A stretch of DNA of 62,838 nucleotides from Candidatus Bathyarchaeota archaeon (GTDB taxonomy: Archaea; Thermoproteota; Bathyarchaeia; RBG-16-48-13; JAGMEO01): the NCBI GenBank assembly GCA_030602965.1, contig JAUVYS010000001.1, positions 1-62,838 on the forward strand, in the 5' to 3' direction. A program made the translations under genes and the position numbers. This document shows, one piece after another, positions 46,455-62,776 of this stretch. The notes under the pieces are model-generated. The model did no database searches. It saw only the letters and a list, made by a program, of their open reading frames with translations, and was not told the DNA's origin. Each line of letters begins with the position of its first letter. Position 1 is the first letter of the stretch.

Positions 46455-46541
46455 GCGAATAACGGCTTTTCGTGTTGAGATTACAGTGCCTTCTGCCCAC
46501 CCGATGTTAGTATCCGTCGTTTAGCCCCCCTTATGTCAGTG

Positions 46542-46799: not shown

Positions 46800-46887
46800 T
46801 GAGAAGTGCTTCTCCTATAGAAACGAATCTTTATTGCAACAAATAAAGGTTTCATTATTTAGGCATATTTTATTATTTTATTTGTTC

Positions 46888-47427: not shown

Positions 47428-47482
47428 ATCTTTTTCCTGTAATTTTTAAGTGCACTAATTAAATTAATTACACACTTAAAAA

Positions 47483-49366
47483 ATGGGGCCTCAAAGGCGT
47501 TGTTATTTTATGTCAAACGATAATCTGCACATTCGTAAGGCGGTTAGGCATTATGCTTCACTATTTACATTTCCGAGTCATAAAGTCTTGTTACTTTTTC
47601 TACTTCTTTTGAACACGATCAGCGCTATGTTTGCGTTTGGAATATTTTTTCCCTCATACGAAGGTCTTAGTATTGGTCTTTTATATGGTCTTTTAGTGTT
47701 GACACTTCCAACGTTAATAAGTGATTTATTTGTCAAATTTGTCATTGCAAAAAACGAAATCGTATTGAATCTTCGAAGATGCACCGCTCTGTCTCTAGTT
47801 TCTTGCATCTTTTGGGAAAGCTCATTAATTGCTGGAAGTCTCATTCAAAACTTATTTCATAATTATTTGATTATAATTTATGCTTCAATTTTTGGTATGA
47901 GTGGAATGATTGCTCTGCGCCTTCTGGTGTTTAGCAGCGTTTCTTTCCTTGATGAAAGTAAAGCAATCTTGTCAACAATAATCCAACCTCTATTATGTTT
48001 TACTTCAGGAATCCTCTTTTTTAAAACAGATTATGTGCCCTTGCTTTTAGTTAATCTAGAATTCCAAGATGTACGTTTCCTATTAATTGCGTTTTTTTCA
48101 AGCTTGTTAATTCTAGTATCAACAAGACTCTTCATTCATCTTGTTGATAGACATGGAAAAAAATCGGTAGGAATCGGGGCAATAGTACTCTTAAAAAGTT
48201 TCATAGCTAATTGGACTGAAGGGACAACTTCATTTATAGAGTCACATTTCGAAAAACTTGGCATCGAAACTACAATCCCTGTAACCATGCTAGCTTTTAG
48301 AAAAAAAGACCAGTCAAAAGCTGTTATGGTGATCCCTCTTTTTCATCCAGGACCATTTAAAAACATAGGAAGCAGTAATTTACCGTTTCATATTCAAAAA
48401 ATGTTGGAGAAAAAACTAGGCGCTATAGTAGTTGTACCTCATGGCACATCAGGTCACGATTTTAATCTGGCTTCACAAAAACAATGTGATAAAGTACTTC
48501 AAGGAATAAACAACTTGGCCACTTTTAAAGACTTTAATTCTAAGGCAACGAAACTATTTCGTGGAAAGAGTGGTTCTGCAAAAGCAACGTGTCAATTCTT
48601 TGGAGATGTTGGCTTAGTTACCGTAACCCGTGCACCTAATAATGTGGAGGATGTTCCATTCGAGGTCGGGATAAATATCGCTTCCAAAGGAGTAAATTCA
48701 GGAGCTAAACACATCGCAGTGATAGATGCACACAATAGTATTAAACCAGGTCACAAAATACCCATATTAACTGATATCGAATTATGTGAAATTCAAAAAG
48801 CAGCTGAATCCGCGATAAATTTAGCTTTGAAAGGAAAAAGATCTGTTTTTAAAACAGGGGCTTCAAGAGTAGTGCCATCTAAATGGGGTTTGGAACAAGG
48901 ATTAGGCCCTGGTGGTATAGCTACCTTTGTTTTTCAAGTTGAAGAACAAAAAGCTGTATACATAGTTCTTGATGGAAATAATGTAGTAAGTGGCCTACGA
49001 GAAAAAATTCTGGATGGCCTTAGAGATTTAAACATAGATGACGGGGAGGTTTTAACAACCGACTGTCACGCCGTAAATGCAATTGAGCTAGTTAAGAAAG
49101 GATACAACGCAATAGGCGAAGTTATTGATCATAAAGAAATTGTTCTCAAAATAAAAGAAACAGTATCTAAGGCACTACAGAATTTGCAAAGATCTGACGT
49201 AGCATATAAGATAGGAGAGATAAATAAAGTAAAAACGTTAGGAAAAGCCAATCTAATCAAACTTAGCCTACTGATTGACTTTGCCTTCAACAGAGCAAAG
49301 ATGTACGCACTAATAATTTTTCCATCTGCCATTTTAGCAATTATATTACTCTTCTTTTTATTCTAA
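47483..49366 (+). CDS. Polytopic membrane protein with large C-terminal soluble domain (DUF2070-like)
   Basis: About 6 N-terminal TM helices, PLFHPGPFKNIGSSNLP...VVPHGTSGHDFNL segment, terminal TM. Family name from memory. Confidence 0.55.
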   Translation: MGPQRRCYFMSNDNLHIRKAVRHYASLFTFPSHKVLLLFLLLLNTISAMFAFGIFFPSYEGLSIGLLYGLLVLTLPTLISDLFVKFVIAKNEIVLNLRRCTALSLVSCIFWESSLIAGSLIQNLFHNYLIIIYASIFGMSGMIALRLLVFSSVSFLDESKAILSTIIQPLLCFTSGILFFKTDYVPLLLVNLEFQDVRFLLIAFFSSLLILVSTRLFIHLVDRHGKKSVGIGAIVLLKSFIANWTEGTTSFIESHFEKLGIETTIPVTMLAFRKKDQSKAVMVIPLFHPGPFKNIGSSNLPFHIQKMLEKKLGAIVVVPHGTSGHDFNLASQKQCDKVLQGINNLATFKDFNSKATKLFRGKSGSAKATCQFFGDVGLVTVTRAPNNVEDVPFEVGINIASKGVNSGAKHIAVIDAHNSIKPGHKIPILTDIELCEIQKAAESAINLALKGKRSVFKTGASRVVPSKWGLEQGLGPGGIATFVFQVEEQKAVYIVLDGNNVVSGLREKILDGLRDLNIDDGEVLTTDCHAVNAIELVKKGYNAIGEVIDHKEIVLKIKETVSKALQNLQRSDVAYKIGEINKVKTLGKANLIKLSLLIDFAFNRAKMYALIIFPSAILAIILLFFLF

Positions 49367-49509
49367 TTACTGCTCTAACACTATGAGACATACTTATTTC
49401 GATTAAATAAGAAGAGTTAAAAGAAACAAAAATGATAAAAGCTACAAAATTCTAGGAAGTTAATCTCAAAAAGTACTAAAAAAAATAAAATATCTTGTGA
49501 GGCCAAAAC

Positions 49510-49797
49510 ATGACTGAAAAAGCTCAAGAAAACATTGTCTTAATTGGAACAAAGCCAGTTATGAATTATATTGTAGCATGCATGACATACTTTAACGCAG
49601 GATCGAACAACGTAATCTTAAAGGCAAGAGGACGTGCTACAAGCCTCGCGGTTGATGTAGTTGAAGTTTTACGGCGTTCTTTCATAAAGGATTTGGAGAT
49701 AAAGAAAATTAACATAGGAACTGAAGAATTGAAAAGGTATGAAGGTCAAACCACTAATGTTTCAACTCTCGAAATAGTAATATCAAAACCAAAATAA
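49510..49797 (+). CDS. albA: DNA/RNA-binding protein Alba
   Basis: NIVLIGTKPVMNYIVACMTYFNAGSNNVILKARGRATSLAVDVVEVLRR is the Alba signature. Confidence 0.9.
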   Translation: MTEKAQENIVLIGTKPVMNYIVACMTYFNAGSNNVILKARGRATSLAVDVVEVLRRSFIKDLEIKKINIGTEELKRYEGQTTNVSTLEIVISKPK

Positions 49798-49914
49798 AAG
49801 ACAAGTAACAAACATCTCACTGAAATCCTTCAAACCTTTCCCAATAACTTTGGAAAATAGATTTTTTATAAAATGTTTATGTCAATATAAACGCTACGAA
49901 TATGAGGATTAATC

Positions 49915-51255
49915 ATGAGTAAGTTTCCAAAAATAGTTGTTTCTCCTCCCGGGCCAAAGGCCAGAGAATTTCTACGGGAAGACGAGAAATTAATTTCCGC
50001 TTCGTATGTAAAGGGATACCCCCTAGTAGTAAAATCAGCAAGTGGATGCATCGTAAAGGATGTTGATGATAATGAATATATCGATTTTAACTCTGGCGTG
50101 GCAGTTATGAATGTCGGGCACTGCCACCCCAGAGTCATCGAAGCGATTAAAACACAATCAGAAAGGCTAATTCATTACTCTACAGATTTTTATTACGATG
50201 TGTTGTTAGAGCTTGCAAAAAAAATGAACAGGTTAACACCTGGTGGGTTCTTAAAAAAAGTTTTTTATGCGAATAGTGGAACAGAATCTGTTGAAACAGC
50301 AATTAAACTAGTCAAATGGCACACAAGAAAACATCGATTTCTTGCTTTCATTGGAGCTTTTCATGGAAGAACTCTTGGTGCTCTGAGTTTTACGGCAAGT
50401 AAACCAGTTCAACAAAGATACTTTTTCCCACTTTTACCTGGAGTCACACATGTACCATATCCTTATTGTTATAGGTGCTCGTTTAAACAAACATATCCAG
50501 AATGCAATTATTATTGTATTGATTTTATTGATGAATTTGTTCTTCAAAAATATGTCCCTCCAGAAGAAACAGCAGCTATAATATTCGAGCCAATTCTGGG
50601 CGAAGGAGGCTATGTTGTTCCCCCTCAAGAATATTTTAAACGCTTGAAGAAGCTTGCAGACAGGTATGATATACTTCTAATAGATGATGAAATTCAAGCA
50701 GGAATTGGGAGAACGGGACGCTGGTTTGCTATCGAACACTGGGGAGTAAAACCAGACATACTTTGTATAGCTAAAGCTATAGCATCAGGGCTTCCATTAA
50801 GTGTGACTGTTGCCAACGAGAAACTCATGGACTGGGAGGCAGGTTCTCATGCAAACACGTTTGGTGGAAATCCAGTTGCGTGTGCAGCAGCTTTAGCTGT
50901 AATCGAGATAATAAAAACAGAGAATCTTCTTGATAACGCACTGAAGCAGGGCGACTATATAATTAAACGACTGAAGGAGATGCAAGACAAATATTCGATT
51001 ATTGGTGATGTTAGAGGTAAAGGTCTCATGATAGGGCTAGAAATAGTCAAAGATTTGGACACTAAAGAACCTGGAAAAAAAGAAGCTAGAGAGATAATAC
51101 TTAGAAGTTGGAGAAGAGGAGTAACTGTACTTACATGTGGCGTTTCTACTATTCGAATCTTCCCTCCTTTAACAATTACACGGGATCTCATCGATAGCGG
51201 GTTGGAAATAATCGAGGCATCAATAAAAGACGTAGAAAAAGAAGTTAAATTATAA
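49915..51255 (+). CDS. Class III PLP aminotransferase (GabT/ArgD-like)
   Basis: GVAVMNVGHCHP, ANSGTESVE, DEIQAGIGRTGRWFA and AKAIASGLPLS (PLP Lys). Substrate not determinable. Confidence 0.85.
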   Translation: MSKFPKIVVSPPGPKAREFLREDEKLISASYVKGYPLVVKSASGCIVKDVDDNEYIDFNSGVAVMNVGHCHPRVIEAIKTQSERLIHYSTDFYYDVLLELAKKMNRLTPGGFLKKVFYANSGTESVETAIKLVKWHTRKHRFLAFIGAFHGRTLGALSFTASKPVQQRYFFPLLPGVTHVPYPYCYRCSFKQTYPECNYYCIDFIDEFVLQKYVPPEETAAIIFEPILGEGGYVVPPQEYFKRLKKLADRYDILLIDDEIQAGIGRTGRWFAIEHWGVKPDILCIAKAIASGLPLSVTVANEKLMDWEAGSHANTFGGNPVACAAALAVIEIIKTENLLDNALKQGDYIIKRLKEMQDKYSIIGDVRGKGLMIGLEIVKDLDTKEPGKKEAREIILRSWRRGVTVLTCGVSTIRIFPPLTITRDLIDSGLEIIEASIKDVEKEVKL

Positions 51256-52824
51256 TCTTAAGTTTATTTGTCTATTTGATTCTTTGATCGGTTTATGTAA
51301 CAATTCAATTCGAGAAGAGGAATTAGAAGAAATCTCTAAGCCACCATTAAAGCTTGTTTTTACATAAGCATTTATTATACGTAACCATGTCTTATCAGTA
51401 AGATTTTGCACTTCATTAGCTAAAGCTCTCCAAAGCGTTACTCTTATTTCTCCAGTTGAGTCACGTATCTTGGTAAACGCAACATTTACTTTCTCGCCTT
51501 TCTTTGTTGTTACTTCCTTAAATTCTACAGGTTCAATAACAGACCCCTCAACTGTTACATTGCTTAATCCTAGTTTTAGGCGATTAATTGGTGTTATCTG
51601 CACTGTTTTTTCCTTGAGTGCTTGTAATTCTTTTACTCCAGGCATTTTAGGGTTTTTTATTATTGCACCGGTTTTTCCTAGGTTAAGGTTAATGCCTTGT
51701 ATGCTCTCTCGGGTGTATGCGCCTTCAATAAGTATCACATCGTTTTTAGATACATGTTCTAAGGAGTCAACTTGGTCGTTCCACATAGCGAGTCTGATTA
51801 ATCCGGTTTCATCCATTAATGTTAAGTCCTTGATCTGTCCATTCTCACCAGACTGGAGATTAAATTTTCTCAATTGACCAACTTGAACAACTCTTGCTAG
51901 TACATTAATGTTTGACATGTTTGATTTCAATTTGCTAATCTTTGTTAGAATTAATAGAGGTTCTTTGATCTCAAATTGTGCCTCTGATAGAATATTAACT
52001 TGGCAATTTGTTCCGGCATGAAGTTCTTTTTCTTCATATAATCCTTTTCTAGCTTGTGCTCCAATAACATGTACCCAATCACCTCTTTTAACACTGTTAA
52101 CAGAATCTACTTTTTCATTCCAAAGAACTAATCTAATTCTACCAGAATCATCAACAATTTCAACACGTCGTAATCTTCCTCTTCTATTTTCTCCCTTCTC
52201 AAATCTTGACTCTGGAAAAATTTGAGAAACAGCCCCAATCACGTTAACATACTTTTCATTCCCTTCTAATTCACTAATTTTACGGAAGAAATCCTTTTTC
52301 ATAGGAAAATTGTCAGGGTCAATATCAAATGGAGAAACACTTATTGTTCCTCTTGATCCTACATTTAACTCTAAAGTATTACCTAACCCCTCTCTAACAT
52401 ATCCATGATATATTCTAACTATCTGATTTCCAGAGATTCTTTTTTGAGCCAGAGTGTTGGCGTTTTTATCCCATAAAGCAACACCTATGACTCCAGTCTT
52501 ATCAGCTACAATTATCTTCACAATCTTCCCCTCTGTTCCGTCAGAACGAGAAAAGGTTTTTATGGGAGAAATAGAGAGTACTCGACCCGTAATCGTTACA
52601 TCGTTTGCGCCATTGATTAAGTCTTTAATCATAACTTTTGTTTTTAACTCGCCTTCTTGTATACGAACTGCTAACTCAGAGGCAACAATATATGCAGCTC
52701 CTTCATCTGTCAACAATCCATCAGAAGCTTGCTTTTTTTCTTTAATCATCTTATTGACAGTTTCATGTGTAAGCTCACGGCGTGAAGATAGAATTCGATT
52801 AATAATTTCAGCGAGAGTTAACAT
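51250..52824 (-). CDS. Replication protein A (ssDNA-binding, four tandem OB folds)
   Basis: Four repeats of the pattern V.I.GRV..I...R.F....G..G....L.L.DETG.IR..LW. Confidence 0.8.
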   Translation of the reverse strand: MLTLAEIINRILSSRRELTHETVNKMIKEKKQASDGLLTDEGAAYIVASELAVRIQEGELKTKVMIKDLINGANDVTITGRVLSISPIKTFSRSDGTEGKIVKIIVADKTGVIGVALWDKNANTLAQKRISGNQIVRIYHGYVREGLGNTLELNVGSRGTISVSPFDIDPDNFPMKKDFFRKISELEGNEKYVNVIGAVSQIFPESRFEKGENRRGRLRRVEIVDDSGRIRLVLWNEKVDSVNSVKRGDWVHVIGAQARKGLYEEKELHAGTNCQVNILSEAQFEIKEPLLILTKISKLKSNMSNINVLARVVQVGQLRKFNLQSGENGQIKDLTLMDETGLIRLAMWNDQVDSLEHVSKNDVILIEGAYTRESIQGINLNLGKTGAIIKNPKMPGVKELQALKEKTVQITPINRLKLGLSNVTVEGSVIEPVEFKEVTTKKGEKVNVAFTKIRDSTGEIRVTLWRALANEVQNLTDKTWLRIINAYVKTSFNGGLEISSNSSSRIELLHKPIKESNRQINLRL

Positions 52825-52869
52825 TCCAGTTTATACGCCTCTTGTAGTGAAAGATTAAAATATAATCTA

Positions 52870-53307
52870 TTGAAGATAACTTTTATTGAGGATTTCAGTT
52901 TGTCCAAGAAAGTTACTAAAAAAGAGAAAGATAAGCCAAATTACGTCTCAAGAGAGAATATGGTTGGAAAACAAGTTATCGATGCAGAAGGCATGATCGT
53001 TGGAAGTGTAAGTGACATATCAGTGGATATTGAAGCTAAAAAGATCGCGTTTAACGTAAATACAAGGTCTGGAGCCAAAATTGACATTGCAAGTGAAGAT
53101 GTAGGTCAAGTTGGTGATGTTATTCTTTTAAAGAAAACAGTAGAAGCTGAAGTTATAATGCCAAAAGATGAGAAAACACAAGTTGCAGCATCGAAGGAAG
53201 GAGTAACATCTACAGCTCCTTCTGCGCCTGGTAAATGTAAGACCTGTGGATATGTAAACGATCCTACTGCGAAGTTCTGTATTAAATGTGGTACAAAACT
53301 AAAATAA
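52870..53307 (+). CDS. PRC-barrel domain protein with C-terminal zinc ribbon
   Basis: MVGKQVIDAEGMIVGSVSDISVDIEAKKIAF (PRC barrel) and CKTCGYVNDPTAKFCIKCG. TTG start at 52870 or ATG at 52960. Confidence 0.7.
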   Translation: MKITFIEDFSLSKKVTKKEKDKPNYVSRENMVGKQVIDAEGMIVGSVSDISVDIEAKKIAFNVNTRSGAKIDIASEDVGQVGDVILLKKTVEAEVIMPKDEKTQVAASKEGVTSTAPSAPGKCKTCGYVNDPTAKFCIKCGTKLK

Positions 53308-53430
53308 CTACCTAAACCTTTTCTGATTTATCAGATTCAAAAAAGTGTTCAATTTAGTTATCCCAGAAAAGGTGTGTTCTAGAGTATTCTCTTTCAGCTC
53401 AGAATTTCTAAGATAAATTCATCATCATTT

Positions 53431-54317
53431 CTAAAGGGTTTTCTGAGTATTCATGTTGCAGTATAGGGTCCAACACCTCTTCCAGCCATGGCAATAATAG
53501 CTGGACGGTCGTAGGTTTATATTAAACTTGCAGCTTCTCCATGCTGTTACCCACTTTTTCTCCTCCTCTTTTGATAACTTTCGTCCAACGCTCCGCCTTT
53601 TAGCAATCTTTGTGTCATCAGCAGTAGTTATTGGGCTTTCAACTTGAACCTCAAAATCTTTTAACTCAACTGATTTGACGATTTTGACTGTTCTTTTCTC
53701 TCCGTCTAGAAACTTAGCAATCAAGTCAGGACTTCCAACCGTTGCTGAAATTCCTATTCTTTGAAAATCGCTTACAGTTATCTCGCGAAGTCTTTCAAGC
53801 CAATTAGAAAGTTGGGCTCCGCGTTTATTAGTTGATATCTCATGTATCTCATCAACAATTACCCATTTTATTGTTCTAAGGGGTTCTCGCACTCTTCGCC
53901 CAGGAAGGATGGCTTGCAGTGTTTCTGGCGTCGTTATTAGCGTGTTTGGTGGTTTCAAAGCTGGCTTTCTTCTTGCACTGGTTGATACGTCTCCATGTCT
54001 AACTTGTACATTTATATCGAGCTGGTGTCAATCTCTATCATTCATCTTAAAACGTCTCGATTCAAAGCACGAAGAGGCATAATATATATTATTTAAATTC
54101 AGAGACGTCCCCTTTGAAGCATAACTGCATAAACTATTCTAATATTGGGAATACAGTAGCTTCAGTTTTTCCTGTGCCAGTTGGAGCAATGAATAGTGTA
54201 TTTTTACCACTTAATTCTTGGTATCGCAAGTTTCTGAGCTTCAGTTGGTTCTTTCCAACCCAGCCTTTCTATCTCTTTTTTTAAGGGGTTAGAAAGAAGA
54301 GAGAAGACATTACTCAT
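53431..54317 (-). pseudogene. Lhr-like DEAD/DEAH-box helicase remnant (heavily degraded and truncated)
   Basis: MSNVFSLLSNPLKKEIERLGWKEPTEAQKLAIPRIK, then APTGTGKTEATVFPIL, YIMPLRALNRDV, RHGD and KPPNTLITTPETLQAIL...VIVDEIHE...ISATVG are spread over all three frames with several stops. The usual C-terminal two-thirds of Lhr is absent. Confidence 0.75.
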
Positions 54318-54404
54318 AAGAATGTTTTACTCATCAGTATTTAATGACAAATACTAAAACTTACCGAAAAAACGGAGCCTTGTTGGGATATAAGTTATCT
54401 GTAA

Positions 54405-54524
54405 TTATTCGCGTTCTTTTCTGTAAATCATGTAGAGGAAAGCTAAGGCTAAGGTCACTATCACCATCACTATAATGATGTCATAAAGAAGACCAAAAAA
54501 TTCCTCTGACAACTTTTCCACCAT
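54405..54524 (-). CDS. Possible 39-aa single-TM micro-protein
   Basis: ATG ORF MVEKLSEEFFGLLYDIIIVMVIVTLALAFLYMIYRKERE. Only hydrophobicity supports it. Confidence 0.2.
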   Translation of the reverse strand: MVEKLSEEFFGLLYDIIIVMVIVTLALAFLYMIYRKERE

Positions 54525-54577
54525 TTCTGAAGAAGTAATATTTTATTGGTATTTAAGATGCTTCTTTTTCTTCTATT

Positions 54578-55123
54578 TTATGAAAGGTTTTCCCCTTGAA
54601 ATATGCCATTATAAGCCTTGTTGTTTGGATTAGATAGTCTTAAAAAAATGATCTGGGTAATTCTCGCATTTCTTTTAATTTTTAGTCCAAAAGGGTTGTG
54701 AACATTTAGCAACGCTTCACTCCGTCCTCTATATCCTGCATCCCAAATAGCAGTTTCTAGCGAAGCGCCACTTCGAAGTAAACTTGATCTTGGTCTTGCG
54801 AAAGCCACAAGGTCACACGGCATACTGATTACTTCGTTGAAAACAATTTTGTAAGCTCCTTTGATAACATGGATCCATCCTTCATTATCAAAAACCAATT
54901 TCTGTGTCTTTGAAACCACTCTTTTGTTGTTGGTTAAATCGAGTGCTCCTTCAGATACAAATTTTTCGATTTTTTTTACTGTGAGGTCGATGCCGTTCGT
55001 ACCAATTTGCTTTTTCTCATCGATAAGTCCATCAATCAAAGGAGGGTTTGTTCTTAATCTCTTCAAAAGATCTTTTCTTCCAAGAACGGTACCGCTCTGC
55101 TCAAACCTTTCTCTTCTTGCCAT
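54578..55123 (-). CDS. dCTP deaminase/dUTPase-family protein
   Basis: GTNGIDLTV and RPRSSLLRSGASLETAIWDAGYRGRSEALLNVHN...ARITQIIFLRL follow the archaeal dUTPase/dCTP deaminase pattern. The track ORF starts at GTG 55135; ATG 55123 is preferred. Confidence 0.8.
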   Translation of the reverse strand: MARRERFEQSGTVLGRKDLLKRLRTNPPLIDGLIDEKKQIGTNGIDLTVKKIEKFVSEGALDLTNNKRVVSKTQKLVFDNEGWIHVIKGAYKIVFNEVISMPCDLVAFARPRSSLLRSGASLETAIWDAGYRGRSEALLNVHNPFGLKIKRNARITQIIFLRLSNPNNKAYNGIFQGENLS

Positions 55124-55412
55124 GTTTGACTTCACAGTTTTTGGTTATTTTGGGACATATTCTTCCAATTTCTGAAGCATCCTTCTCTTTTCCTTTTTCT
55201 CTGTATTGGGCATTCTCTTTTCTTAGTATTAGAAACCAAATAGCTGATGCAATGATAGTCATAACGATGAATCCATAGAAAGCGATGTTTATGAGAAAGA
55301 TCCCTAAATAAACACTGCCAAGCTGTGTCAAGTTTATTAAAACACATCCATAAAGTAATAAGCCTATAGGAATTAACCATAGCCCAATTAAAATAATGTA
55401 AACAAGCCTCAT
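55101..55412 (-). CDS. Hypothetical small membrane protein
   Basis: Three hydrophobic helices followed by a Lys-rich tail. Overlaps the start of the dUTPase-family gene. Confidence 0.4.
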   Translation of the reverse strand: MRLVYIILIGLWLIPIGLLLYGCVLINLTQLGSVYLGIFLINIAFYGFIVMTIIASAIWFLILRKENAQYREKGKEKDASEIGRICPKITKNCEVKHGKKRKV

Positions 55413-55515
55413 GTCTTTTCAACCGAAATGTTACAGAGCACTCATTATGATCTAGCGTGTTTTGGTTTTTATTGTTTAGGCGGACTCGTATAATTGTCTT
55501 TGATTGTAGAAATAG

Positions 55516-55588
55516 AGCCGGGGACCGGATTTGAACCGGTGTGAAGCCGGTCTGCAGCCGACCGCCTCAACCACTCAGCCACCCCGGC
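55516..55588 (-). tRNA. tRNA-Cys (anticodon GCA), intron-less
   Basis: Minus strand GCCGGGG-TG-GCTGAGTGGTTGAGGC-GGTCGG CTGCAGA CCGGC-TTCAC-ACCGG TTCAAAT CCGGT-CCCCGGC-T. Discriminator U is typical of Cys. Confidence 0.9.
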
Positions 55589-55635
55589 TTTTATATCAGC
55601 AAAATATGGTTTTTGTTTTAATGAGCTTTAATTTT

Positions 55636-55893
55636 TCATAATATAATTAACTCAGTTCCTAACGCTTCTCCAGGGAGACCTTTTCTAAACCTCGCTTTAA
55701 GAGTGCCTTTTCTACCGTGAATGCCAACAATTTTACCTATAAGACGATTGCCATTTGGACTGTTCCAAATTATTTTTCTTCCAATATACATTGCCGCCTT
55801 GTTTCTATCATTTGCACCTTCCACTTTTACCAAAGCATACTTATTTTGTTGAGTGCATTGTCCGCCTTGGTAGTTAACAAACAGTGCTCTCAT
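55636..55893 (-). CDS. rpl35ae: Ribosomal protein L35Ae (eL33)
   Basis: GKIVGIHGRKGTLKARFRKGLPGEALG is the L35Ae signature. Confidence 0.9.
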   Translation of the reverse strand: MRALFVNYQGGQCTQQNKYALVKVEGANDRNKAAMYIGRKIIWNSPNGNRLIGKIVGIHGRKGTLKARFRKGLPGEALGTELIIL

Positions 55894-55968
55894 GATTATT
55901 TTGCTCCTTTGAAAACAGGTTGCTAGGGTCTAAAGCGTCATTCAATCCTTTATAATGGTTTCTCACAT

Positions 55969-56838
55969 TCACATCAACATTTGTTTTACTGCAAGTTCTC
56001 TTACTTTAGCAAGGTTTACATAATCGTCTCCACGTGAATCGATTGGAGTTTCCAATATGAGGGGCAGCTGTTTGATAGCTTCATTTTTAAGGATTATTTT
56101 AAACCCGTTCTCTCCTATGAAACCTAATCCTATATGTTCATGTCTATCGGTGTGGCTTCCCAGATCGCCTTTTGAGTCATTTAAATGAACGACTTTAAGA
56201 AGATTCAAGCCAATTACTTCATCCAAATGTTTTAGTGTATTAACAAGAGCTTTTCTCTCTCTAAGTTCATAGCCAGCAGAAAAAGCATGGCATGTATCAA
56301 AGCATATAGCAACTCTGCTTTTCTGTTCAACTCTGCTGATAATGTGTTGAAGATCTTCGAAGGCGCCACCTACACTGTTCTTTGTTCCTGCAGTGTTTTC
56401 TAACAAAATAATTACATCATTATCAATTGTTGAGAGAGCCTTATTACATGCTTCAGCCACTCGGTTATATCCAGCTTCTATTCCTGTTCCAAGATGACTT
56501 CCCAGATGAATTACACAGTAAGGAATGTTAAGTAATCCGCATCGATGAACTTCGGCAATAAGGCTGTCAACTGACTTCTTATAGATGTGTTTTTTTGGAG
56601 AGGCAAGATTTGGTAGATATGGCATATGCGCCACAACTGGTGCTATTTCTAAATCACTTAACTTTGAAGTGAACTTCTTTATGTTTTCTTCAGATAGATC
56701 TTTGAACGCCCATCCTCTTGGATTTCGAGTAAATATTTGAAAAGTGTCACATCCGCGTTCTAACGCTCTATCATTCGCAAGATCAATTGAACCTGAAATA
56801 GATACATGAACGCCAATTTTCAAGAAAGAAATCTCCAA
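55969..56838 (-). CDS. nfo: Endonuclease IV (deoxyribonuclease IV)
   Basis: TIM-barrel AP endonuclease motifs: HMPYLPNLASP, HLGSH, LENTAG, CFDTCHAFSAGY, HLNDSK...GSHTDRHEHIG. Confidence 0.9.
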   Translation of the reverse strand: MEISFLKIGVHVSISGSIDLANDRALERGCDTFQIFTRNPRGWAFKDLSEENIKKFTSKLSDLEIAPVVAHMPYLPNLASPKKHIYKKSVDSLIAEVHRCGLLNIPYCVIHLGSHLGTGIEAGYNRVAEACNKALSTIDNDVIILLENTAGTKNSVGGAFEDLQHIISRVEQKSRVAICFDTCHAFSAGYELRERKALVNTLKHLDEVIGLNLLKVVHLNDSKGDLGSHTDRHEHIGLGFIGENGFKIILKNEAIKQLPLILETPIDSRGDDYVNLAKVRELAVKQMLM

Positions 56839-56850
56839 AAATAAAAAAAA

Positions 56851-58314
56851 TCAGCTTTTCTTTATTTTCAAATCACTAAAGAAAAGGCGGGTCTCCCCCA
56901 TAGTTTTTTCTTTTAAAGAATTAATTCGTACTATCAAAGGAAAGTTGTTTAAAACCTTTCCAAGCATGAGACAGTAATGTGGTGGAAGCTGTCTAGCAAT
57001 TATGTTGACCGTCTCAACATCAATCATTGCAGCTCTTGAAACTATTTCTAGATCATGTTCGTTTGTGAAGTTAAAAAGAAATATGTTGTCTGCTTGTCTG
57101 TAAACACTTTTTCGAATGCTGTCCGGCTGGTTAGTAATGAATGTTGTGAACATTCCAAGATGTCGCATTCTTGTCACAATGTCATTCCAATATGTCTCCC
57201 GAAGATAGAGGTGTGCTTCCTCAGCGAAAAGGAAAACAGCCTTGAGACCCCAATTTTCAAGTAACTGAGATAATTTGCTTAACAAAAATTCTACAACGAT
57301 TTGCCGAAATTTTGAATTTATGTTTCGAAGATTGATGATGAGAGCACCACCTTTATCCATTTTGTCCATCACTGCTTCCAATACAGTGGCTTCTCCCCAA
57401 TCATCTGTAAAAAATTTTGTATTTATTAAACTCTCAAACCTTCTTAACAACGCATCTTGAATATAATTATTTGACACAGCGCGAATAGCTGAGTTCAAAT
57501 TATTAAGTGTGAGAGCACCCCGCTCTTTAAGATCCTTCCAAATCCTTCGAAACTCCCATGCAGATGTTGCTGGTAGATCCAAAATATTCTCCATTACTCT
57601 TAAGAAAACTCCAAGTCCAGCATACTGCAGAGTGACCTTAAAATCGCTGCCAGGAGTAAGTGAAATAAAACGGTCATAGAGAGAAGTCCTTCCTTCACTC
57701 TTTGTGTATCCAAGATTAATGTATTCTCCATTTATGTCAAAAACTATACAAATGCCACCTTTTGATACCAGCTGGATGAGAAGAAGCTTTGAAAGATGAG
57801 ACTTCCCTGTTCCTTTTTTACCTGTTATAATGTTGAGTTTTCCATCAATAGAATTTATGTTTATTGAGATACGTCCACCACCTTTCAAAGTACCAATGTC
57901 TAAACCATTTTGCGGCTCATTTTCTAGTAATTTAATTAAGTCTGCGTCTGGGAGCTTTCTAAGCCTTGATGTAGAGCGAGGTGGAATCCAAGACACATCG
58001 TTACTAACCTTTCCTTTATTTAACGCTCCTCGAATTTTACAAGTAAAAAGCTCAGCATCTTTGATAATATTCACGAAAGACTTCATTTCAAGCGGGTCTA
58101 AGTCTACACCCTCAAGTTTTTCTGTTGATGATGATCGGAGAATGTCTTCAAGAATTCCTGGAACATTTACGTAGCCTGAGTTTATAACTTGTATTATGAG
58201 GGATTTTTCTGAATTTACGTCCTCAACAAGCAGATAATCACCTCTATTAACATCTTCTGGAGGACAGCATATGACCTGAACAGTATTGGCATCAATCTTG
58301 TAGATTTGCATCAT
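56851..58314 (-). CDS. herA: HerA-like (DUF87/FtsK-HerA superfamily) ATPase
   Basis: N-terminal barrel-like domain, Walker A ITGKKGTGKSHL, Walker B VFLFAEEAH. 4-nt overlap with the nurA-like gene. Confidence 0.8.
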   Translation of the reverse strand: MMQIYKIDANTVQVICCPPEDVNRGDYLLVEDVNSEKSLIIQVINSGYVNVPGILEDILRSSSTEKLEGVDLDPLEMKSFVNIIKDAELFTCKIRGALNKGKVSNDVSWIPPRSTSRLRKLPDADLIKLLENEPQNGLDIGTLKGGGRISININSIDGKLNIITGKKGTGKSHLSKLLLIQLVSKGGICIVFDINGEYINLGYTKSEGRTSLYDRFISLTPGSDFKVTLQYAGLGVFLRVMENILDLPATSAWEFRRIWKDLKERGALTLNNLNSAIRAVSNNYIQDALLRRFESLINTKFFTDDWGEATVLEAVMDKMDKGGALIINLRNINSKFRQIVVEFLLSKLSQLLENWGLKAVFLFAEEAHLYLRETYWNDIVTRMRHLGMFTTFITNQPDSIRKSVYRQADNIFLFNFTNEHDLEIVSRAAMIDVETVNIIARQLPPHYCLMLGKVLNNFPLIVRINSLKEKTMGETRLFFSDLKIKKS

Positions 58315-59387
58315 GAAATCACCTTGTTATTGATCAACCCTCCCCCATATGGGCCAAAAAGAATCTGACGAATATTGGGTCGAAACACGGTTCTTATTCC
58401 AAAATTCTCAGCGATTAAGCGTTGCATCCCAATTATTTCGCTTGCAGAGAACCTTGACAATATGTGAGCAAGTCTTAATGTCTCAGGGTAACTTTCGACG
58501 ACAATATCATTGCTTATAAGCTTTTGAACTGCGTTAATTCCTGTCTCTCTTTCTATTTCGCGGTCAACATCTAGACGGAATGAAAATTGACTGGGAGTAA
58601 GCTTTGCAGCATACACTCTGCCAAAGAAACAGAGATAATTACCATACTGCCGGCGAATAATTTCATCTAAGTCAAGCAAACATGGAGCATTACGATTGTT
58701 AATTAAATCTGCGATTCTACGACCAAATATAGTAAATTTTGTTTTTTTTGAAAAAGCCAACACCACGTTTCCTCGGCTTCTCGCCATTCGGAGCATATCA
58801 TCTATTAAGGTAACAGGACTATCAATGGTCCATGCAGTAAGTGAACCATCCCAAAGTATAACGGAGTCTTCACAAGATTGTGAAAGTTGAGCTTGGAGCC
58901 ACCGTTCAAGAATATTTCGAATACGTCCAGGCATGCACCAAACATCAGGTGTTGGTGCTGCTCTACTAGCACCAAAGTACATTTGACGAAGTTTATTGTA
59001 AAGAAATTGTTTATTATTCTCTGTTACATGGAAGATGAATGGTCCGTAACGAGTATAATTATACTTAACCTCATCTTTCCAGACAATTGTACCTCGGACA
59101 GCACAAAGCAAACCATTGCTAGTTTCACCTAATTCAATACTAGATGTATCCAAACCAAAAATGTGTGCTTTCTCATCGATATATGCCAGTTTTATCATAT
59201 CCAAATTTTCTCCATCAAAATTGGCAATAAATTCATGTTCGTTAAGTTTGTTAAAGTCTCCAACGTAGTTTGTCGGCAAATCGATGTTTCTTAGACGATG
59301 ACTTGATTCAATAGTGTTCTTTAGAGAAGCATTGCCCAGTTCTACGAAGTTATATGGAGACTTCTGACTAAAATCAAGAACTTGCAT
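58311..59387 (-). CDS. nurA: NurA-like nuclease
   Basis: IFGLDTSSIE and VILWDGSL acidic motifs with NurA-like spacing. GGAGG lies 7 nt before the ATG. Confidence 0.7.
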   Translation of the reverse strand: MQVLDFSQKSPYNFVELGNASLKNTIESSHRLRNIDLPTNYVGDFNKLNEHEFIANFDGENLDMIKLAYIDEKAHIFGLDTSSIELGETSNGLLCAVRGTIVWKDEVKYNYTRYGPFIFHVTENNKQFLYNKLRQMYFGASRAAPTPDVWCMPGRIRNILERWLQAQLSQSCEDSVILWDGSLTAWTIDSPVTLIDDMLRMARSRGNVVLAFSKKTKFTIFGRRIADLINNRNAPCLLDLDEIIRRQYGNYLCFFGRVYAAKLTPSQFSFRLDVDREIERETGINAVQKLISNDIVVESYPETLRLAHILSRFSASEIIGMQRLIAENFGIRTVFRPNIRQILFGPYGGGLINNKVIS

Positions 59388-59475
59388 AACACTTCCTCCA
59401 GAAAATTTTCAACTCAGAAGTTAAGACTTCTTTTTTTAACCTAAGTAAACTAAATATAGAAACGCGTATAGTCTT

Positions 59476-59569
59476 TATAGTGGTGTAGTGGGTTAGCGTC
59501 AACCATAATTACCCCCTTTTTCGGTTTGTCGCCTAAAGTCCTTGGTGGGCTTTAGCACGACCCGCTATA
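59476..59569. ncRNA. Candidate structured RNA element (function and strand unknown)
   Basis: Locally GC-rich intergenic block. TATAGTGG (59476-59483) can pair with CCGCTATA (59562-59569). Internal hairpins GTCG-C-CTAAAG/CTTTAG-CA-CGAC (59528-59561) and GGTT/AACC (59491-59504). Confidence 0.25.
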
Positions 59570-59586
59570 CCTTCATATTTGAAGTT

Positions 59587-60036
59587 TCATTCTAGCGACT
59601 TTATGAGTATGTAACCATATCCCTTATTGGTATGAATTCGCCTGAGGGCACCCTTCTTTGTTAAATCTGTTAATCTTCCCTTAATTGTTCCAATTGGGTA
59701 ATGTATTGCATTAATTTTCATTACTTCTAATAGGTTACTAAGTGTTCGCGGTTTCTTTTTTCCCCATTTGGTAGCGAGGATCTTTGTAATGACTTCAGGA
59801 CATGACGCACCTGAGGAAACAGTGACTGTAGGTAATACGTCCGCTTCGACTGTTTTTTCTCCTAATTTATGCACATGTGATCTTGCTGTTGTAGAAGTTA
59901 AGGTGAAAGCTTCAGAAACTTTACTTACAATAATCGAAAGGTCATCTAACGCTTTCATTACTTCGTCTTGAGAACCACTTAATTCAATTTCTTTATCATT
60001 TATTCGAATTCTAAGTCTGAAGGGGTGAGAACTCAT
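59587..60036 (-). CDS. Paralog array member 4 (N-terminal beta-strand module + C-terminal winged helix)
   Basis: FRLRIRINDKEIELSGSQDEVMKAL; C-terminal TLSNLLEVMK...IGTIKGRLTDLTKKGALRRIHTNKGYGYILI. Confidence 0.6.
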   Translation of the reverse strand: MSSHPFRLRIRINDKEIELSGSQDEVMKALDDLSIIVSKVSEAFTLTSTTARSHVHKLGEKTVEADVLPTVTVSSGASCPEVITKILATKWGKKKPRTLSNLLEVMKINAIHYPIGTIKGRLTDLTKKGALRRIHTNKGYGYILIKSLE

Positions 60037-60039
60037 GTT

Positions 60040-60561
60040 TTATTCTCCTTTTTTATTTTTTAGTTGTTTTAGAATCTCTTCAGTCTTCTTGATTCCCCTG
60101 CTTGTAATTCGGTATTCACCTCTACCCACTCTATCGACGATACCGTCGTTGACCATCCACGCCAACTGATTGAACATTGTCTTCATTGCTTTTCCAGTGA
60201 TTTTTGATAGTTCATTGGCTGAAAGAGATTCTTTAGGTTGTTTTTGGAATTTGTTACTGATGTATGAGCCCATGAGTGCTAAGCAAACGGCGTCTTCTGC
60301 TGAAATATCCTTTGGACTTGTAAGTATGATGCCTTCTGGCGCGATCTGTAAAATTCCTTTTAAATCGTTTACAACCGCTCTTAAATCTGGAGTGAAAATT
60401 ATGTCTCGAAGTATTTCATATTCAGGATATATTTTGTTTAAAAAGTCAATGAAAACTGAAAACACTGCTTCAGGAGTTCCTTCGAAGTCAAGTTTGTTAT
60501 CACCAAATTCAACATGAACTTTCAAATTTTTTGATTCACTCATCTTATACTTCCTCTGCAA
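60040..60561 (-). CDS. Paralog array member 3
   Basis: LKVHVEFGDNKLDFEGTPEAVFSVFIDFLNKIYPEY, ILQIAPEGIILTSPKD, LSANELSKITGK...MVNDGIVDRVGRGEYRITSRG. ATG at 60543 would abut the stop of member 2. Confidence 0.65.
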   Translation of the reverse strand: MQRKYKMSESKNLKVHVEFGDNKLDFEGTPEAVFSVFIDFLNKIYPEYEILRDIIFTPDLRAVVNDLKGILQIAPEGIILTSPKDISAEDAVCLALMGSYISNKFQKQPKESLSANELSKITGKAMKTMFNQLAWMVNDGIVDRVGRGEYRITSRGIKKTEEILKQLKNKKGE

Positions 60562-61069
60562 TAGCTCTTATACGAGGTAAGTCTTTCTTTCGGAAGCCTT
60601 CGATACCATAGGTTGTAATTTTGTATTCTCCTCTTCCCACCCTTTCTACCCATCCAATGTCTACCATCTCACTTAATCTGGCTGCTACAGAACCTGGTTT
60701 TCCCCCAGTTGTTGTTATTATTTCAGCAATAGATAGGGAGTCCTTGCCAAGTCTTCCTAAACGAAAGCCAACTTTAGCTTTAAGTAGATGAAGAAGAATA
60801 TGTTCTCTTTCACCTGTTTGTTCCCTGGGGACCGTTATAACTAATCCCTCGGGAGTAATCAGTAATACCTTTTCTAATTCTTTCAATAAATCTTCAAAAC
60901 TCACGGTTAAAGTTAATTTTGATATCAAATTGTAATTTGGATAGATTTTAGTTAAAAAGTTAAGGAAACCACTAATCACTTCATCAACAGAACCGGAGAA
61001 TTTAGCTTCCAACTTATTAACTTTTACAGTGACCTCGAGCTTTTTCTCTATAGTGCGCAATTTTTTCAC
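60545..61069 (-). CDS. Paralog array member 2
   Basis: LEVTVKVNKLEAKFSGSVDEVISGFLNFLTKIYPNY, VLLITPEGLVITVPRE, LSIAEIITTTGGKPGSVAARLSEMVDIGWVERVGRGEYKITTYG. Confidence 0.65.
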   Translation of the reverse strand: MKKLRTIEKKLEVTVKVNKLEAKFSGSVDEVISGFLNFLTKIYPNYNLISKLTLTVSFEDLLKELEKVLLITPEGLVITVPREQTGEREHILLHLLKAKVGFRLGRLGKDSLSIAEIITTTGGKPGSVAARLSEMVDIGWVERVGRGEYKITTYGIEGFRKKDLPRIRAIAEEV

Positions 61070-61528
61070 CTATTTAGTAATTTTTGAAATTAGATCATCC
61101 ACCCATTTTTTTCCTAAGATGGTTAGTCTGTAGCCCCCGCCGTTTTTAAGAGCTAATCCTTCTCTTCTCATTTCGCTAAGCCTAGAACCAAAGCCAGTTG
61201 CGGGGCGCCCACTTAAACTCAATAAATGGCCAACTTCTTTAGGTTCAATAGAATTTGGATCGTAGGAATACAAAATTAGCCCAATAGCTTCTTTATTGGT
61301 TAATTTATCTTTTGGAACGATGATTAATGGTCCTTCAGGTGAAAATTCTATCAAACCTGAAAGCATCATTTTTGTTTCTGAAGGAACAATGTCTGGACCA
61401 ATAACTAATCCATCTATTGTTGCTAACCACTCTGGAAAAGTTTCGAGGGAAGATATGATCTCGTCTAGACTTTCACCTTCTATTTCCACATTCCCAAATG
61501 GTCTTTTTATTACAACTCTAATCTTCAA
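61070..61528 (-). CDS. Paralog array member 1
   Basis: MKIRVVIKRPFGNVEIEGESLDEIISSL, LIEFSPEGPLIIVPKD, VGHLLSLSGRPATGFGSRLSEMRREGLALKNGGGYRLTILG. TTG start. Confidence 0.65.
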   Translation of the reverse strand: MKIRVVIKRPFGNVEIEGESLDEIISSLETFPEWLATIDGLVIGPDIVPSETKMMLSGLIEFSPEGPLIIVPKDKLTNKEAIGLILYSYDPNSIEPKEVGHLLSLSGRPATGFGSRLSEMRREGLALKNGGGYRLTILGKKWVDDLISKITK

Positions 61529-61708
61529 TGGAAAATCGTTTAGAAATAATTTTAACGTAAATTTAAACTTTTCTACTACATGTTAACATAACGTAATATA
61601 ACGTATATATTTCAATGTGAGTTGCATGTAATTCGTATTCCTAAAAAATATAATAAAATATATATCCATCACAAGAATGTTTTAATTCTAGCTAAACTCG
61701 ATAATATA

Positions 61709-62776
61709 TTATTTGATAATGCCTTTGTTTTTTAAATATTTGATCATCTCTTTTTCTGTCTTGAAAATTTTCGTAGCATGATATTCAAAGAAAGGACTTA
61801 ATTTTTTAGGGAAGTAAGCAAAGACATTTTTATTGTTAGTGAAGCCATAAACCATCTCGCTCAAGACACCAGGAGATAAAACTGGTACGGGATAGTAGAC
61901 TATTATCATGTCGCTTTGAGAAATAAGTTTGTAATCTCTATCAACAGTTTGGTCAATAATATCTTCTCTTGCTTCTTCAATTTCGCTAATATTGATTAAT
62001 CCTTGTTTACCATCTACTTTAAATTTTAGTTTATCTTTGCCTTTTCTCTTTGCTGCTTCAGCAAATCCAATCAAATCCATTTCTTCAATATCCTCAGGAT
62101 CGAAGATAATAAGATCACGTTTTCTAAGCTCATCTCGAAATCTATTCTTTGCTTTCATCTTCGATGGATCTTGCTTCATATAAGTCATAGGGTAGCTGAT
62201 GTAAGCTTTCTTAATATTTAGGTCAAATAAAAGATTGATAATTTCTTCTGGGGGATCCTTATTTGTAATGACATAATTTTTCACTCCTTGATAATTGGCA
62301 ATCATATTGGATATGAAAAGCTCCTCGTCTCGCCATACTAGGAGTTCTTTTAAACTAAATTTTCCTTTCCATCCAGGTTGTCTTTCAAGCCTAATCTTAA
62401 TGGTTTGAATATCATCAATTATCGTTAAAAACACATCTGGTGATAATTGATTAAGATAGTGAAAATCGAAAGCAGGTATGAGATTTTTTTTCCATCTAAA
62501 ACAGGCGTGGGTGCTTATTATCAGGTTTTCTTGGCTTTTTGCTTCTGTAATAATTTGTTCAAACACTGTGGCACGAAGATAGTTAAGAGTAGAAGATGAC
62601 ATATCTAAAATTTTGTGTTCAGGTATTTCTCTACCAAGTCTCTTTGCTGTTTCAAACATCATAGAACCTACATGAAGAACTTTCGTAGGTTTACTTGCTT
62701 TAGTGATAAGCTCTGCAAGGTTCTCTAAATATTCGTTCCTCTTGCTTCCACTAATTCCAGTCCCAACTATGATCAT
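61709..62776 (-). CDS. Fusion protein: archaeal adenylate-kinase (AdkA)-like domain with deviant P-loop + nucleoside 2-deoxyribosyltransferase-like C-terminal domain
   Basis: N-half: IVGTGISGSKR, VLHVGSMMFETAKRLG, LIISTHACFRWKKNLIPAF, SPDVFLTIIDD follow the AdkA layout. C-half: KKAYISYPMT and SDMIIVYYPVPVLSPGVLSEMVYGF resemble the YLAGP / S.G...E.G motifs of NDT/Rcl-like domains. Confidence 0.6.
   Translation of the reverse strand: MIIVGTGISGSKRNEYLENLAELITKASKPTKVLHVGSMMFETAKRLGREIPEHKILDMSSSTLNYLRATVFEQIITEAKSQENLIISTHACFRWKKNLIPAFDFHYLNQLSPDVFLTIIDDIQTIKIRLERQPGWKGKFSLKELLVWRDEELFISNMIANYQGVKNYVITNKDPPEEIINLLFDLNIKKAYISYPMTYMKQDPSKMKAKNRFRDELRKRDLIIFDPEDIEEMDLIGFAEAAKRKGKDKLKFKVDGKQGLINISEIEEAREDIIDQTVDRDYKLISQSDMIIVYYPVPVLSPGVLSEMVYGFTNNKNVFAYFPKKLSPFFEYHATKIFKTEKEMIKYLKNKGIIK

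Follow-up and report, generated by a model that had tools for sequence, protein, structure and literature searches.

Four adjacent genes on the minus strand of a 62,838-nucleotide (nt) stretch of DNA from a Candidatus Bathyarchaeota archaeon (contig JAUVYS010000001.1, positions 1 to 62,838; hereafter the window) encode small paralogous proteins, here called m1 to m4, which join an N-terminal module to a basic C-terminal winged helix-turn-helix (wHTH) domain. Members of the family are encoded across the Bathyarchaeia as tightly coupled sets of paralogs, in many species next to genes for a NurA-like nuclease and a HerA-like ATPase and in some also next to mre11 and rad50, and conserved operator-like DNA lies at the promoters of m1 and, in one class of loci, of nurA. 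By analogy with PafBC, we favour the reading that the m proteins are co-operating wHTH regulators of the end-resection operon, probably heteromeric ones, and would give it about an even chance.

The wHTH fold of the DNA-binding half is not new, and nor is a local regulator beside its target. What appears to be new is an unannotated, class-wide family whose N-terminal module is unmatched, its occurrence in sets of two to four coupled paralogs, its position heading archaeal end-resection genes, and a defined, conserved operator-like motif. In an entire class of abundant uncultured sediment archaea, an undescribed family heads the NurA-HerA(-Mre11-Rad50) genes. Defined proteins together with defined sites are directly testable and bear on the control of repair genes or on accessory subunits, and there is a new N-terminal module to characterise, as well as what may be a new structured RNA. 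Archaea are, to our knowledge, without LexA, and we know of little on how resection is regulated and targeted in them.

Four winged-helix paralogs in tandem

The preliminary description of this DNA had claimed four tandem paralogs with a common layout, whose genes abut or nearly so and of which the fourth, without the PEG motif, is the most diverged; all of this is borne out. BLASTP relates m2 to m3 at E 2.8e-30 (34% over 149 amino acids), m1 to m3 at E 1.2e-9, m1 to m2 at E 6e-5 and m2 to m4 at E 0.003. When the alignments of the orthologous groups (A1 for m2, A2 for m4 and A3 for m1) were compared by hhalign, the m2 family matched the m1 family at 99% (E 5e-18) and the m4 family at 86% (E 5e-6), collinearly across 126 columns, and the m1 and m4 families matched each other at 29% (E 6e-4). 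On these scores m1, m2 and m3 can be taken as certain paralogs and m4 as a real but distant member of the family. Mean column identity inside each orthologous group is 54-64%. The open reading frame (ORF) at 31686-32105, which the preliminary description had put forward for comparison with the four, did not prove to be a fifth paralog: it scores 3.0 bits against the joint hidden Markov model (HMM) of the family, its own shuffles reaching 6.4 bits, and its pairwise E values are at least 0.19.

The four genes are tightly packed. The GTG start codon of m2 comes straight after the TAG stop codon of m1, a 1-nt spacer separates the m2 stop (60545) from the ATG of m3 at 60543, and m3 and m4 are 3 nt apart. 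The longest ORF of m3 begins with a TTG at 60561 (60561..60040, 173 amino acids), which would give an overlap of 17 nt with m2; the true start is likely the ATG, because orthologs begin with MS..K.LKV and the local sequence agrees. Gene order and tight coupling are kept across the Bathyarchaeia, in line with the organisation first described: in other genomes the spacing from m1 to m2 has a median of +4 nt (within +/-20 nt in 35 of 37 cases), that from m2 to m3 a median of 0 nt (64 of 73) and that from m3 to m4 a median of -4 nt (all nine).

An AlphaFold2 model of m2, made from 51 homologs (predicted local distance difference test, pLDDT, 86.8), gives structural meaning to the three-part motif layout that had been read from the sequences, as all three motifs fall on elements of the modelled fold. 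A first beta-hairpin (residues 11-26) terminates at an invariant Gly and is followed by a long helix (28-52) and then a short one; a second beta-hairpin (69-78) has the PEG motif as its turn, with E74 and G75 invariant; and the wHTH is made up of helices 87-103, 114-121 and 125-138 and strands 141-145/148-151, the wing hairpin (141-151) corresponding to the G(R/G)G(E/G)Y(K/R)(I/L)T motif (GRGEY in m2), with two further helices after the wing. The three-helix bundle and two-stranded beta wing of the model are those of the wHTH fold. Instead of PEG, m4 has an invariant Pro, an invariant Cys79-Pro80 and a His-Tyr-Pro motif. The recognition helix carries R-L-S-E, invariant in m1 and m2, N-Q-L in m3 and R-L-T-D in m4; the wHTH halves are basic, with isoelectric points of 9.6-10.3, and m1, m3 and m4 each have an acidic N-terminal half.

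Foldseek matches of the m2 model in the Protein Data Bank (PDB) are confined to the C-terminal ~90 residues and are of the generic wHTH kind. The best is to AspA, the centromere-binding protein of pNOB8 (4rs8, 5k5q; template modelling, TM, score about 0.7 on the target), and further ones are to wHTH domains of MarR, IclR and CRP types, with E values of about 1e-3 to 1e-2; for AspA, MarR and IclR the probability is ~1.0 and the target TM score 0.68-0.75. Searching PDB sequences with the profile of the m2 family returned the CooA wHTH alone (E 0.017), and with those of the m1 and m4 families nothing. Modelled alone, the N-terminal 84 residues reach only low confidence (pLDDT 67), as is expected of an interaction module, and a Foldseek search with that model gave no match with E<1; the predicted module would then be unmatched in the PDB, which does not make it a new fold.

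The preliminary description had allowed that the proteins might belong to an ordinary regulator family such as MarR, TrmB or PadR. Instead, all scores against curated families lie below threshold. No model of Pfam, NCBIfam or PADLOC is reached at threshold by m1-m4, the gathering score is unmet for each of the curated wHTH families MarR, PadR, TrmB, IclR, ArsR, BlaI/Penicillinase_R, AbiEi and HVO_A0261_N, and an NCBIfam scan of the four window proteins returned zero regulator-family matches. The best Pfam scores of the window proteins are 11-16 bits, against cut-offs of 22-35. Below threshold, the 51 m2 members match HVO_A0261_N (29/51), AbiEi_4 (21/51), MarR_2 and HTH_IclR, and the m4 members Penicillinase_R (13/28), the best E value across these 51 m2 and 28 m4 members being 2e-6.

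Distribution, gene neighbourhood and promoter DNA

The orthologous group of m2 has 143 proteins, that of m1 54 and that of m4 33, each of them annotated as 'hypothetical'. Named sources of homologs are Bathyarchaeota/Bathyarchaeia and Hecatellales, together with single metagenome-assembled genomes labelled 'Nitrososphaerota archaeon' and 'Thermoproteota archaeon'. An exhaustive HMM search of 1.84 billion representatives gave 454 proteins with E<=1e-3, counted as representatives at 50% identity, and 178 with E<=1e-10. Scanning one genome per GTDB species gave 95 loci, 80 of which were kept; all of these come from metagenome-assembled genomes of Bathyarchaeia type, nearly all being titled Bathyarchaeota, Bathyarchaeia or Hecatellales, and three bear generic archaeal labels. 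The pattern of the species scan was an m2-specific peptide, so that distant members elsewhere could escape it. Searches of viral contigs and of plasmids gave no family members, and the family has so far been found in Bathyarchaeia only. Copy number in the 80 loci is two to four, with at least two adjacent paralogs in every case and a single copy in none. The core is the m2-m3 pair, present in 71 of the 80; a strong m1 is present in 35, and the full m1-m2-m3-m4 array in seven species besides the window, to which one relative (L006) is 94% identical.

Natural fusions add to this picture. P0208, a protein of 535 amino acids whose three cluster members lie on separate contigs, consists of a Ser/Thr protein kinase domain followed by tandem m2-like and m3-like units, both without the first hairpin, and in P0335 an m2/3-like and an m4-like unit are fused. 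Since these fusions combine units of different paralog types, they suggest that the paralogs act together, which would fit hetero-oligomers. Other fusions are to putative enzyme domains: P0240 and P0271 have an N-terminal domain with a PD...E-x-K-like motif ahead of a complete m unit, and P0300 (326 amino acids) joins an m unit to DUF488. From such fusions the unit of PEG hairpin and wHTH would seem to be a portable module for DNA binding, found in company with enzymes that act on nucleic acids.

The gene of P0240 also belongs to a cluster in its own right. On metagenome contig k141_4062102 (L087:1094-5592), m-like modules extend over four genes, and the cluster comprises a 141-amino-acid m2/3-like protein, a 133-amino-acid protein with an E-C-K motif, P0240, an adjoining XPB/Rad25-type helicase, and a further P0240 neighbour of 258 amino acids with a TIR/nucleoside-deoxyribosyltransferase (NDT)-like N-terminus and an m1-like C-terminus. 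Possibly the cluster is a helicase-nuclease or conflict system of its own, with the same DNA-binding module.

The ORFs of the 80 loci were classified by HMMs of m1-m4 and of the NurA and HerA of the window, and tallied. The preliminary description had overlooked that directly downstream of m4 in the window a NurA-family nuclease and a HerA-family ATPase are encoded together, the herA gene overlapping the nurA stop codon by 4 nt. Both proteins are very divergent, NurA reaching 26.7 bits and HerA matching the Sulfolobus HerA 4d2i over nearly its full length with 43 bits (E 3e-10). NurA-like and HerA-like genes adjoin the m genes in 47 of the 80 species loci and in at least eight arrangements, among them 1-2-3-4-N-H, 1-2-3-N-H, 1-2-4-N-H, 1-2-N-H, 2-3-(gap)-v'-N-H, where v' is an inverted, weakly m4-like gene, and H'-N'-v ... 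1-2-3. The NurA/HerA pairs of the linked loci are of two clearly different types (L004 as against the window). Hecatellales have the order m1-m2-(m4)-nurA-herA-mre11-rad50, and it is in loci of this type that the canonical end-resection genes of archaea have the m genes at their head. The mre11-rad50 pair lies just downstream of herA in eight loci (L001/L002/L063, L058, L061, L064, L069 and L073), directly abutting herA in five and following a gap of ~1.3 kb in Hecatella, and in L056 mre11 is at the contig end; no match to mre11 or rad50 was found in the window or within 6 kb in the remaining loci. Six of the loci without nurA-herA linkage were inspected, and in these the m genes stand beside a pair of genes for proteins of ~440 and ~640 amino acids, matching in size the gatD and gatE genes found beside the Hecatella cluster. 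Because this pair recurs beside m2-m3, the position of m2-m3 indicates a vertically inherited chromosomal location and not a mobile island.

Upstream of m1 in the window, TACGTTA occurs at 61605-61599 and again at 61595-61589, with 10-bp phasing; the array further holds TTAACATGT as a third, degenerate copy and a TATA-like box, GTTTAAAT, at 61568-61561. TACGTTA recurs past the TATA box, at 61559-61553, ahead of the m1 start codon. Aligned m1 upstream regions have two to four ACGT-core palindromes (TTAACGTTAA, TTTACGTAAA and GACGTC variants) with a phasing of 9-12 bp, directly 5' of a B recognition element/TATA-like box, CGAAAGnTTTTAAAT, and in some loci also between TATA box and start codon. 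At least two phased ACGT sites within 150 nt are found at 26 of the 38 strong m1 genes that have enough upstream sequence; from the background of 20 such pairs in 888 kb, or 0.0034 per 150 bp, about 0.13 would be expected in 38. These background pairs are mostly inside ORFs and have GC-rich flanks, and none comprises three or more sites, while clusters of exact AACGTT are confined, across 917 kb, to m1 promoters. Several of the 12 promoters without an array carry variant forms, either overlapping AACGTTACGT or TCGTA. The array is kept from the lineage of the window to the Hecatellales and in all architectures, over a distance at which the proteins are only 45-60% identical. TACGTTA is not enriched in the window as a whole (5 found, 5.5 expected); the signal is one of clustering, phasing and conservation across species.

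A second operator-like sequence is found where nurA is preceded by v'. The two genes are divergent, and the spacer of ~100 nt between them holds a near-perfect 14-bp palindrome with the consensus TTGCGCATGCGCAA, recognisable in nine of the 11 listed loci of the 2-3-v'-N-H type and exact in three (spacers in Table 1). It abuts a TTTATATA box, the TATA-like element of nurA, and has a TTGTGCA half-site ahead of it. Over their full length the v' proteins are related to m4 (hhalign 94%, E 1e-7), and where the wHTH begins, both clades keep an invariant Cys. This is how a divergent regulator and its operator are classically arranged.

The spacer ahead of nurA has medians of 58-91 nt across loci, longer than the junctions between m genes. 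Window-type loci have 200-250 nt between the m genes and nurA, with a TATA-like box of its own, TCTATATTTA, after which GGAGG, a Shine-Dalgarno-like motif, is conserved at about 9 nt from the ATG of nurA. The region is likely a separate nurA-herA promoter, as predicted from these motifs.

The m4-nurA spacer of the window (199 nt) also contains a GC-richer stretch, 59478-59596, with a closing helix GGUAUAG...CUACACC that spans 59571-59482. This element is kept at each of the seven species loci that have the four-gene array, for which RNAalifold gives 20 pairs, seven of them with compensatory changes. A covariance model also matches L004, with its different NurA/HerA type, at 36 bits (E 3e-6), L080 at 25 bits and L083 at 23 bits, and more weakly L065 and L076; the matches, in 10-12 loci, always lie directly 5' of nurA. 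In a 10-sequence alignment 92.6% of the cells are paired, compared with 38-51% when the partners are slid, and eight pairs show double changes; the single-sequence fold is modestly stable (z = -2.2). The consensus is GGUGC(A/G)GCGG...GUCGC-hairpin-GCGAC...UGA(C/U)G...CCCAC(U/C)GCACC. Searches of the element returned no Rfam family and no tRNA, and C/D-box, H/ACA and tRNA-like readings, inspected by eye, do not fit. It is probably an RNA of ~90-115 nt, and it could form part of a 3' untranslated region or leader, act as a small RNA or be bound by a protein.

Regulators, subunits or separate factors

In the mechanism we favour, m1-m4 would be a Bathyarchaeia-specific family of two-part DNA-binding proteins which are made together from one tightly coupled operon and act jointly as sequence-specific regulators, probably as hetero-dimers or hetero-oligomers held by their N-terminal modules. 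The m1/m2 pair, with its R-L-S-E helix, would bind the phased ACGT palindromes at the m1 TATA box and so exert autoregulation; where the operon runs into nurA-herA-mre11-rad50, the same binding would control the entire end-resection operon, and the m4 clade, including v', would act at the nurA promoter. The module would then switch the transcription of genes for double-strand-break end resection, locally and in a lineage-specific way. A regulator role is favoured by the wHTH of the transcription-factor type and by the palindromes at the promoters. The preliminary description had expected a hetero-oligomer rather than four independent regulators, and while a hetero-oligomer fits what has been found, the opposition to regulators does not hold, given the basic transcription-factor-type wHTH, the ACGT arrays and the 14-bp nurA palindrome. 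We infer that the m proteins, and not another factor, bind these motifs and that they do so as hetero-oligomers; the direction of the regulation and its signal are likewise matters of inference.

The closest parallel is PafBC. The genes of PafB and PafC, which are close paralogs, share an operon; the two proteins form a heterodimeric wHTH regulator of the DNA-damage response, natural fusions of the two being known, and PafBC controls DNA-repair genes independently of LexA (PMC6789036). The m genes likewise stand side by side in one operon, each encodes a wHTH, and natural inter-paralog fusions occur. However, PafB and PafC have about 300 amino acids with an N-terminal wHTH followed by WYL and WCX domains, whereas the m proteins have 150-175 with the wHTH at the C-terminus, are archaeal and come as up to four paralogs. 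There is no homology beyond the wHTH, the other module of the m proteins being an unmatched beta-hairpin/helix unit, and no WYL domain was matched by Pfam in the m proteins of the window or in the 51 m2 and 28 m4 members. The motifs at m1 are palindromic, unlike the PafBC site.

With regulators of the MarR, PadR, IclR and BlaI types and with AspA, the m proteins share a winged helix in the C-terminal ~90 residues, with recognition helix and GxGxY wing, as well as palindromic sites by a promoter, and there are the weak HMM matches to these families. They differ from MarR and PadR proteins in that the dimerisation elements of those families are absent, the unmatched N-terminal module being in their place, and in being encoded by two to four tandem paralogs and not by one gene. 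Orc1-2, an Orc1/Cdc6 AAA+ protein, is the DNA-damage-response regulator of Sulfolobales and the only archaeal damage-response regulator in the literature we found (PMC12490963). Like the role proposed here, it is an archaeal winged-helix route to DNA-damage gene control that does not involve LexA, but it belongs to an unrelated protein family and is global, not placed at the head of a resection operon. Our literature search turned up no publication that deals with a wHTH partner of NurA-HerA, with the present family or with HVO_A0261.

Several observations weigh against a role as regulators of end resection. About 30 of the 80 species carry m2-m3, with or without m1, and have no nurA or herA within 6 kb, so that the m2-m3 core cannot be only a local nurA-herA regulator. 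The m2 promoters in loci without a strong m1 carry no ACGT arrays, and before nurA in the window there is no such array either, the structured element being there instead. Two to four paralogs are unusually many for one local regulator, and the fusions of m-like modules to PD-ExK-like, DUF488, protein kinase and TIR/NDT-like domains would fit a DNA-targeting adaptor as well as a regulator. There is also another candidate for binding the arrays. A gene that we call y, present in 33 of the 80 loci and absent from the window, encodes a protein of 230-245 amino acids without Pfam match and with a wHTH-like N-terminus; it is divergent from m1 or m2, often on the same ACGT-array spacer as m1, and its product could be the true ACGT binder in those genomes.

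It could also be that the m proteins form a hetero-oligomeric wHTH assembly on DNA ends or DNA structures and, as a structural or targeting part of the HerA-NurA(-Mre11-Rad50) machine, recruit, load or gate the helicase-nuclease. We consider this unlikely, though it is the most serious of the alternatives. It would account for the lasting linkage to two NurA/HerA types and to Mre11-Rad50, and the fixed order, tight coupling and fusions of the paralogs are as in multi-subunit complexes; m modules fused or adjacent to nuclease and helicase proteins (the PD-ExK-like domain by an XPB-type helicase, DUF488), the strong conservation within each group and the novel, unmatched N-terminal module point the same way. 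The promoter motifs would in that case be bound by another factor or reflect secondary autoregulation. The two readings are compatible. However, one would not expect of a subunit that m2-m3 stands away from nurA-herA in so many species, that nurA in window-type loci is set off by a long spacer with its own TATA-like box, or that the wHTH resembles those of sequence-specific regulators and conserved palindromic operator-like sites lie at the relevant promoters. The operons of Sulfolobus, Pyrococcus and Thermococcus resemble the present loci in their NurA- and HerA-family genes and, for Hecatellales, in the contiguous mre11-rad50, but described HerA-NurA operons contain no small wHTH genes or proteins, and the characterised HerA-NurA complexes reportedly need no such subunits (PMC3326311, PMC5715905, PMC12977600). 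A bolder form, in which the paralogs, as a DNA-binding hetero-oligomer held by the N-terminal modules, are an integral and so far undescribed component of HerA-NurA-Mre11-Rad50 as a break-recognition or loading factor, is somewhat less probable still. If true, the m proteins would fill the niche of accessory proteins of the Nbs1/CtIP/Ku type, with feedback on their own promoter, and the structured RNA before nurA might belong to the same control circuit.

Another possibility, which we regard as improbable, is that the four are independent wHTH homodimeric transcription factors with their own regulons, adjacent through tandem duplication and without a tie to DNA repair. The regulator-like fold would be expected of them, palindromic operator-like sites suit homodimers, the recognition helices differ between m3, m1/m2 and m4, and copy number changes between lineages. 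Independent factors would not, however, be expected to keep their order and tight coupling across a class-level clade, to occur at none of the 80 loci as a single copy, to be naturally fused to one another, or to have a linkage to NurA-HerA that survives many rearrangements.

The likeness to AspA raises the question of a nucleoid or segregation set, in which the proteins would spread, as AspA does, from phased sites and a HerA/FtsK-like ATPase would act on the nucleoprotein. AspA is the best structural match and several sites are phased by one helical turn, but the E values of that match are those of a generic wHTH, no conserved ParA or ParB partner was seen in the 80 loci, which thus do not hold an AspA-ParB-ParA cassette, the arrays lie at a promoter and number one per locus, the partners are the end-resection set including Mre11-Rad50, and no plasmid or viral relatives were found; this reading is very improbable. 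HerA ATPases are also known from defence systems. A module for anti-virus defence, or one of a mobile element, around a HerA-type ATPase, the least credible of the explanations weighed, would draw on weak matches to PADLOC HerA/mad8 models and on the combination of m modules with XPB-like, PD-ExK-like and TIR/NDT-like domains in L087, but PADLOC-DB returned for the window only a generic HerA/mad8 ATPase and weak Csa3 and AbiEi wHTH matches, with none for NurA, m1 or m4 and no system match, and the absence of relatives from the viral contigs and plasmids searched, the vertical-looking synteny with gatD/gatE and other housekeeping genes, the direct adjacency of Mre11-Rad50 in Hecatellales and the presence of the module in most species sampled led us to reject it.

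Feature coordinates and other genes of the window

Table 1. Features of the m locus in the window and corresponding features in other loci (aa, amino acids; loci of other genomes are given with their own coordinates)
Feature	Coordinates	Strand	Length	Remarks
m1	61070..61528	minus	152 aa	TTG start (ORF list); acidic N-terminal module, PEG hairpin, basic wHTH, invariant R-L-S-E recognition-helix motif
m2	60545..61069	minus	174 aa	GTG start; best conserved and most widespread paralog
m3	60040..60543	minus	167 aa	from the likely ATG start at 60543
m4	59587..60036	minus	149 aa	distant paralog; basic wHTH (isoelectric point 10.3)
NurA-like nuclease gene	58311..59387	minus	358 aa	Pfam NurA, 26.7 bits (cut-off 21)
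HerA-like ATPase gene	56851..58314	minus	487 aa	DUF87/HerA, 47.9 bits (cut-off 23.2)
Operator-like array, m1 promoter	61553..61605	minus
Structured element (probable RNA)	59478..59596	minus		m4-nurA spacer
TATA-like box TCTATATTTA	59451..59460	minus		conserved ahead of nurA (alignment A4)
Structured element, other loci	L004:8479-8593, L006:7477-7595, L007:6260-6373, L008:7460-7576, L051:7451-7567, L054:7452-7565, L059:7424-7540, L080:1985-2076, L083:7060-7157
v'-nurA spacers	L014:3565-3655, L018:7716-7776, L025:7991-8101, L026, L027, L030, L037, L039, L042, L062
Gene y, examples	L012:4692-5384, L017:4686-5378, L021:5092-5787, L023:5073-5807	minus

Two genes that flank the cluster in the window were tried as members of the module and rejected. 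Immediately after herA, an AP_endonuc_2 TIM-barrel protein is encoded at 55969-56838; this AP-endonuclease gene is conserved only in the near-identical L006 and in L004/L005. Upstream of m1, a minus-strand gene at 61709-62776 encodes a protein with an AAA_17/adenylate-kinase-like N-terminus and a weakly nucleoside 2-deoxyribosyltransferase-like C-terminus, and is conserved only in L006.

The DNA-metabolism genes in 41323-56838 also include those for the large subunit DP2 of PolD (41323-44736), a multi-OB-fold RPA-like protein (51250-52824) and a dCTP deaminase-like protein (54578-55135). A minus-strand ORF of 175 amino acids at 53431-53958 has a match to the DEAD/DEAH helicase domain that is limited to the C-terminal third of the profile (positions 95-161 of 167), and may be a truncated or split helicase gene.

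Elsewhere in the window, four TTCCAGTGGAAA-like repeats lie at 32301, 32464, 32633 and 32728, partly in inverted orientation, in the stretch of lowest GC content (28.7%) between the ORF at 31686-32105 and that at 32698-34023, the latter being Orc1/Cdc6-like by eye. We take the repeats to resemble archaeal origin-recognition boxes, and the region 32301-32739 is probably a replication origin, as judged from these sequence features. A tRNA-Glu(TTC) called at 7684-7782 probably contains an intron, since the call is 99 nt long.

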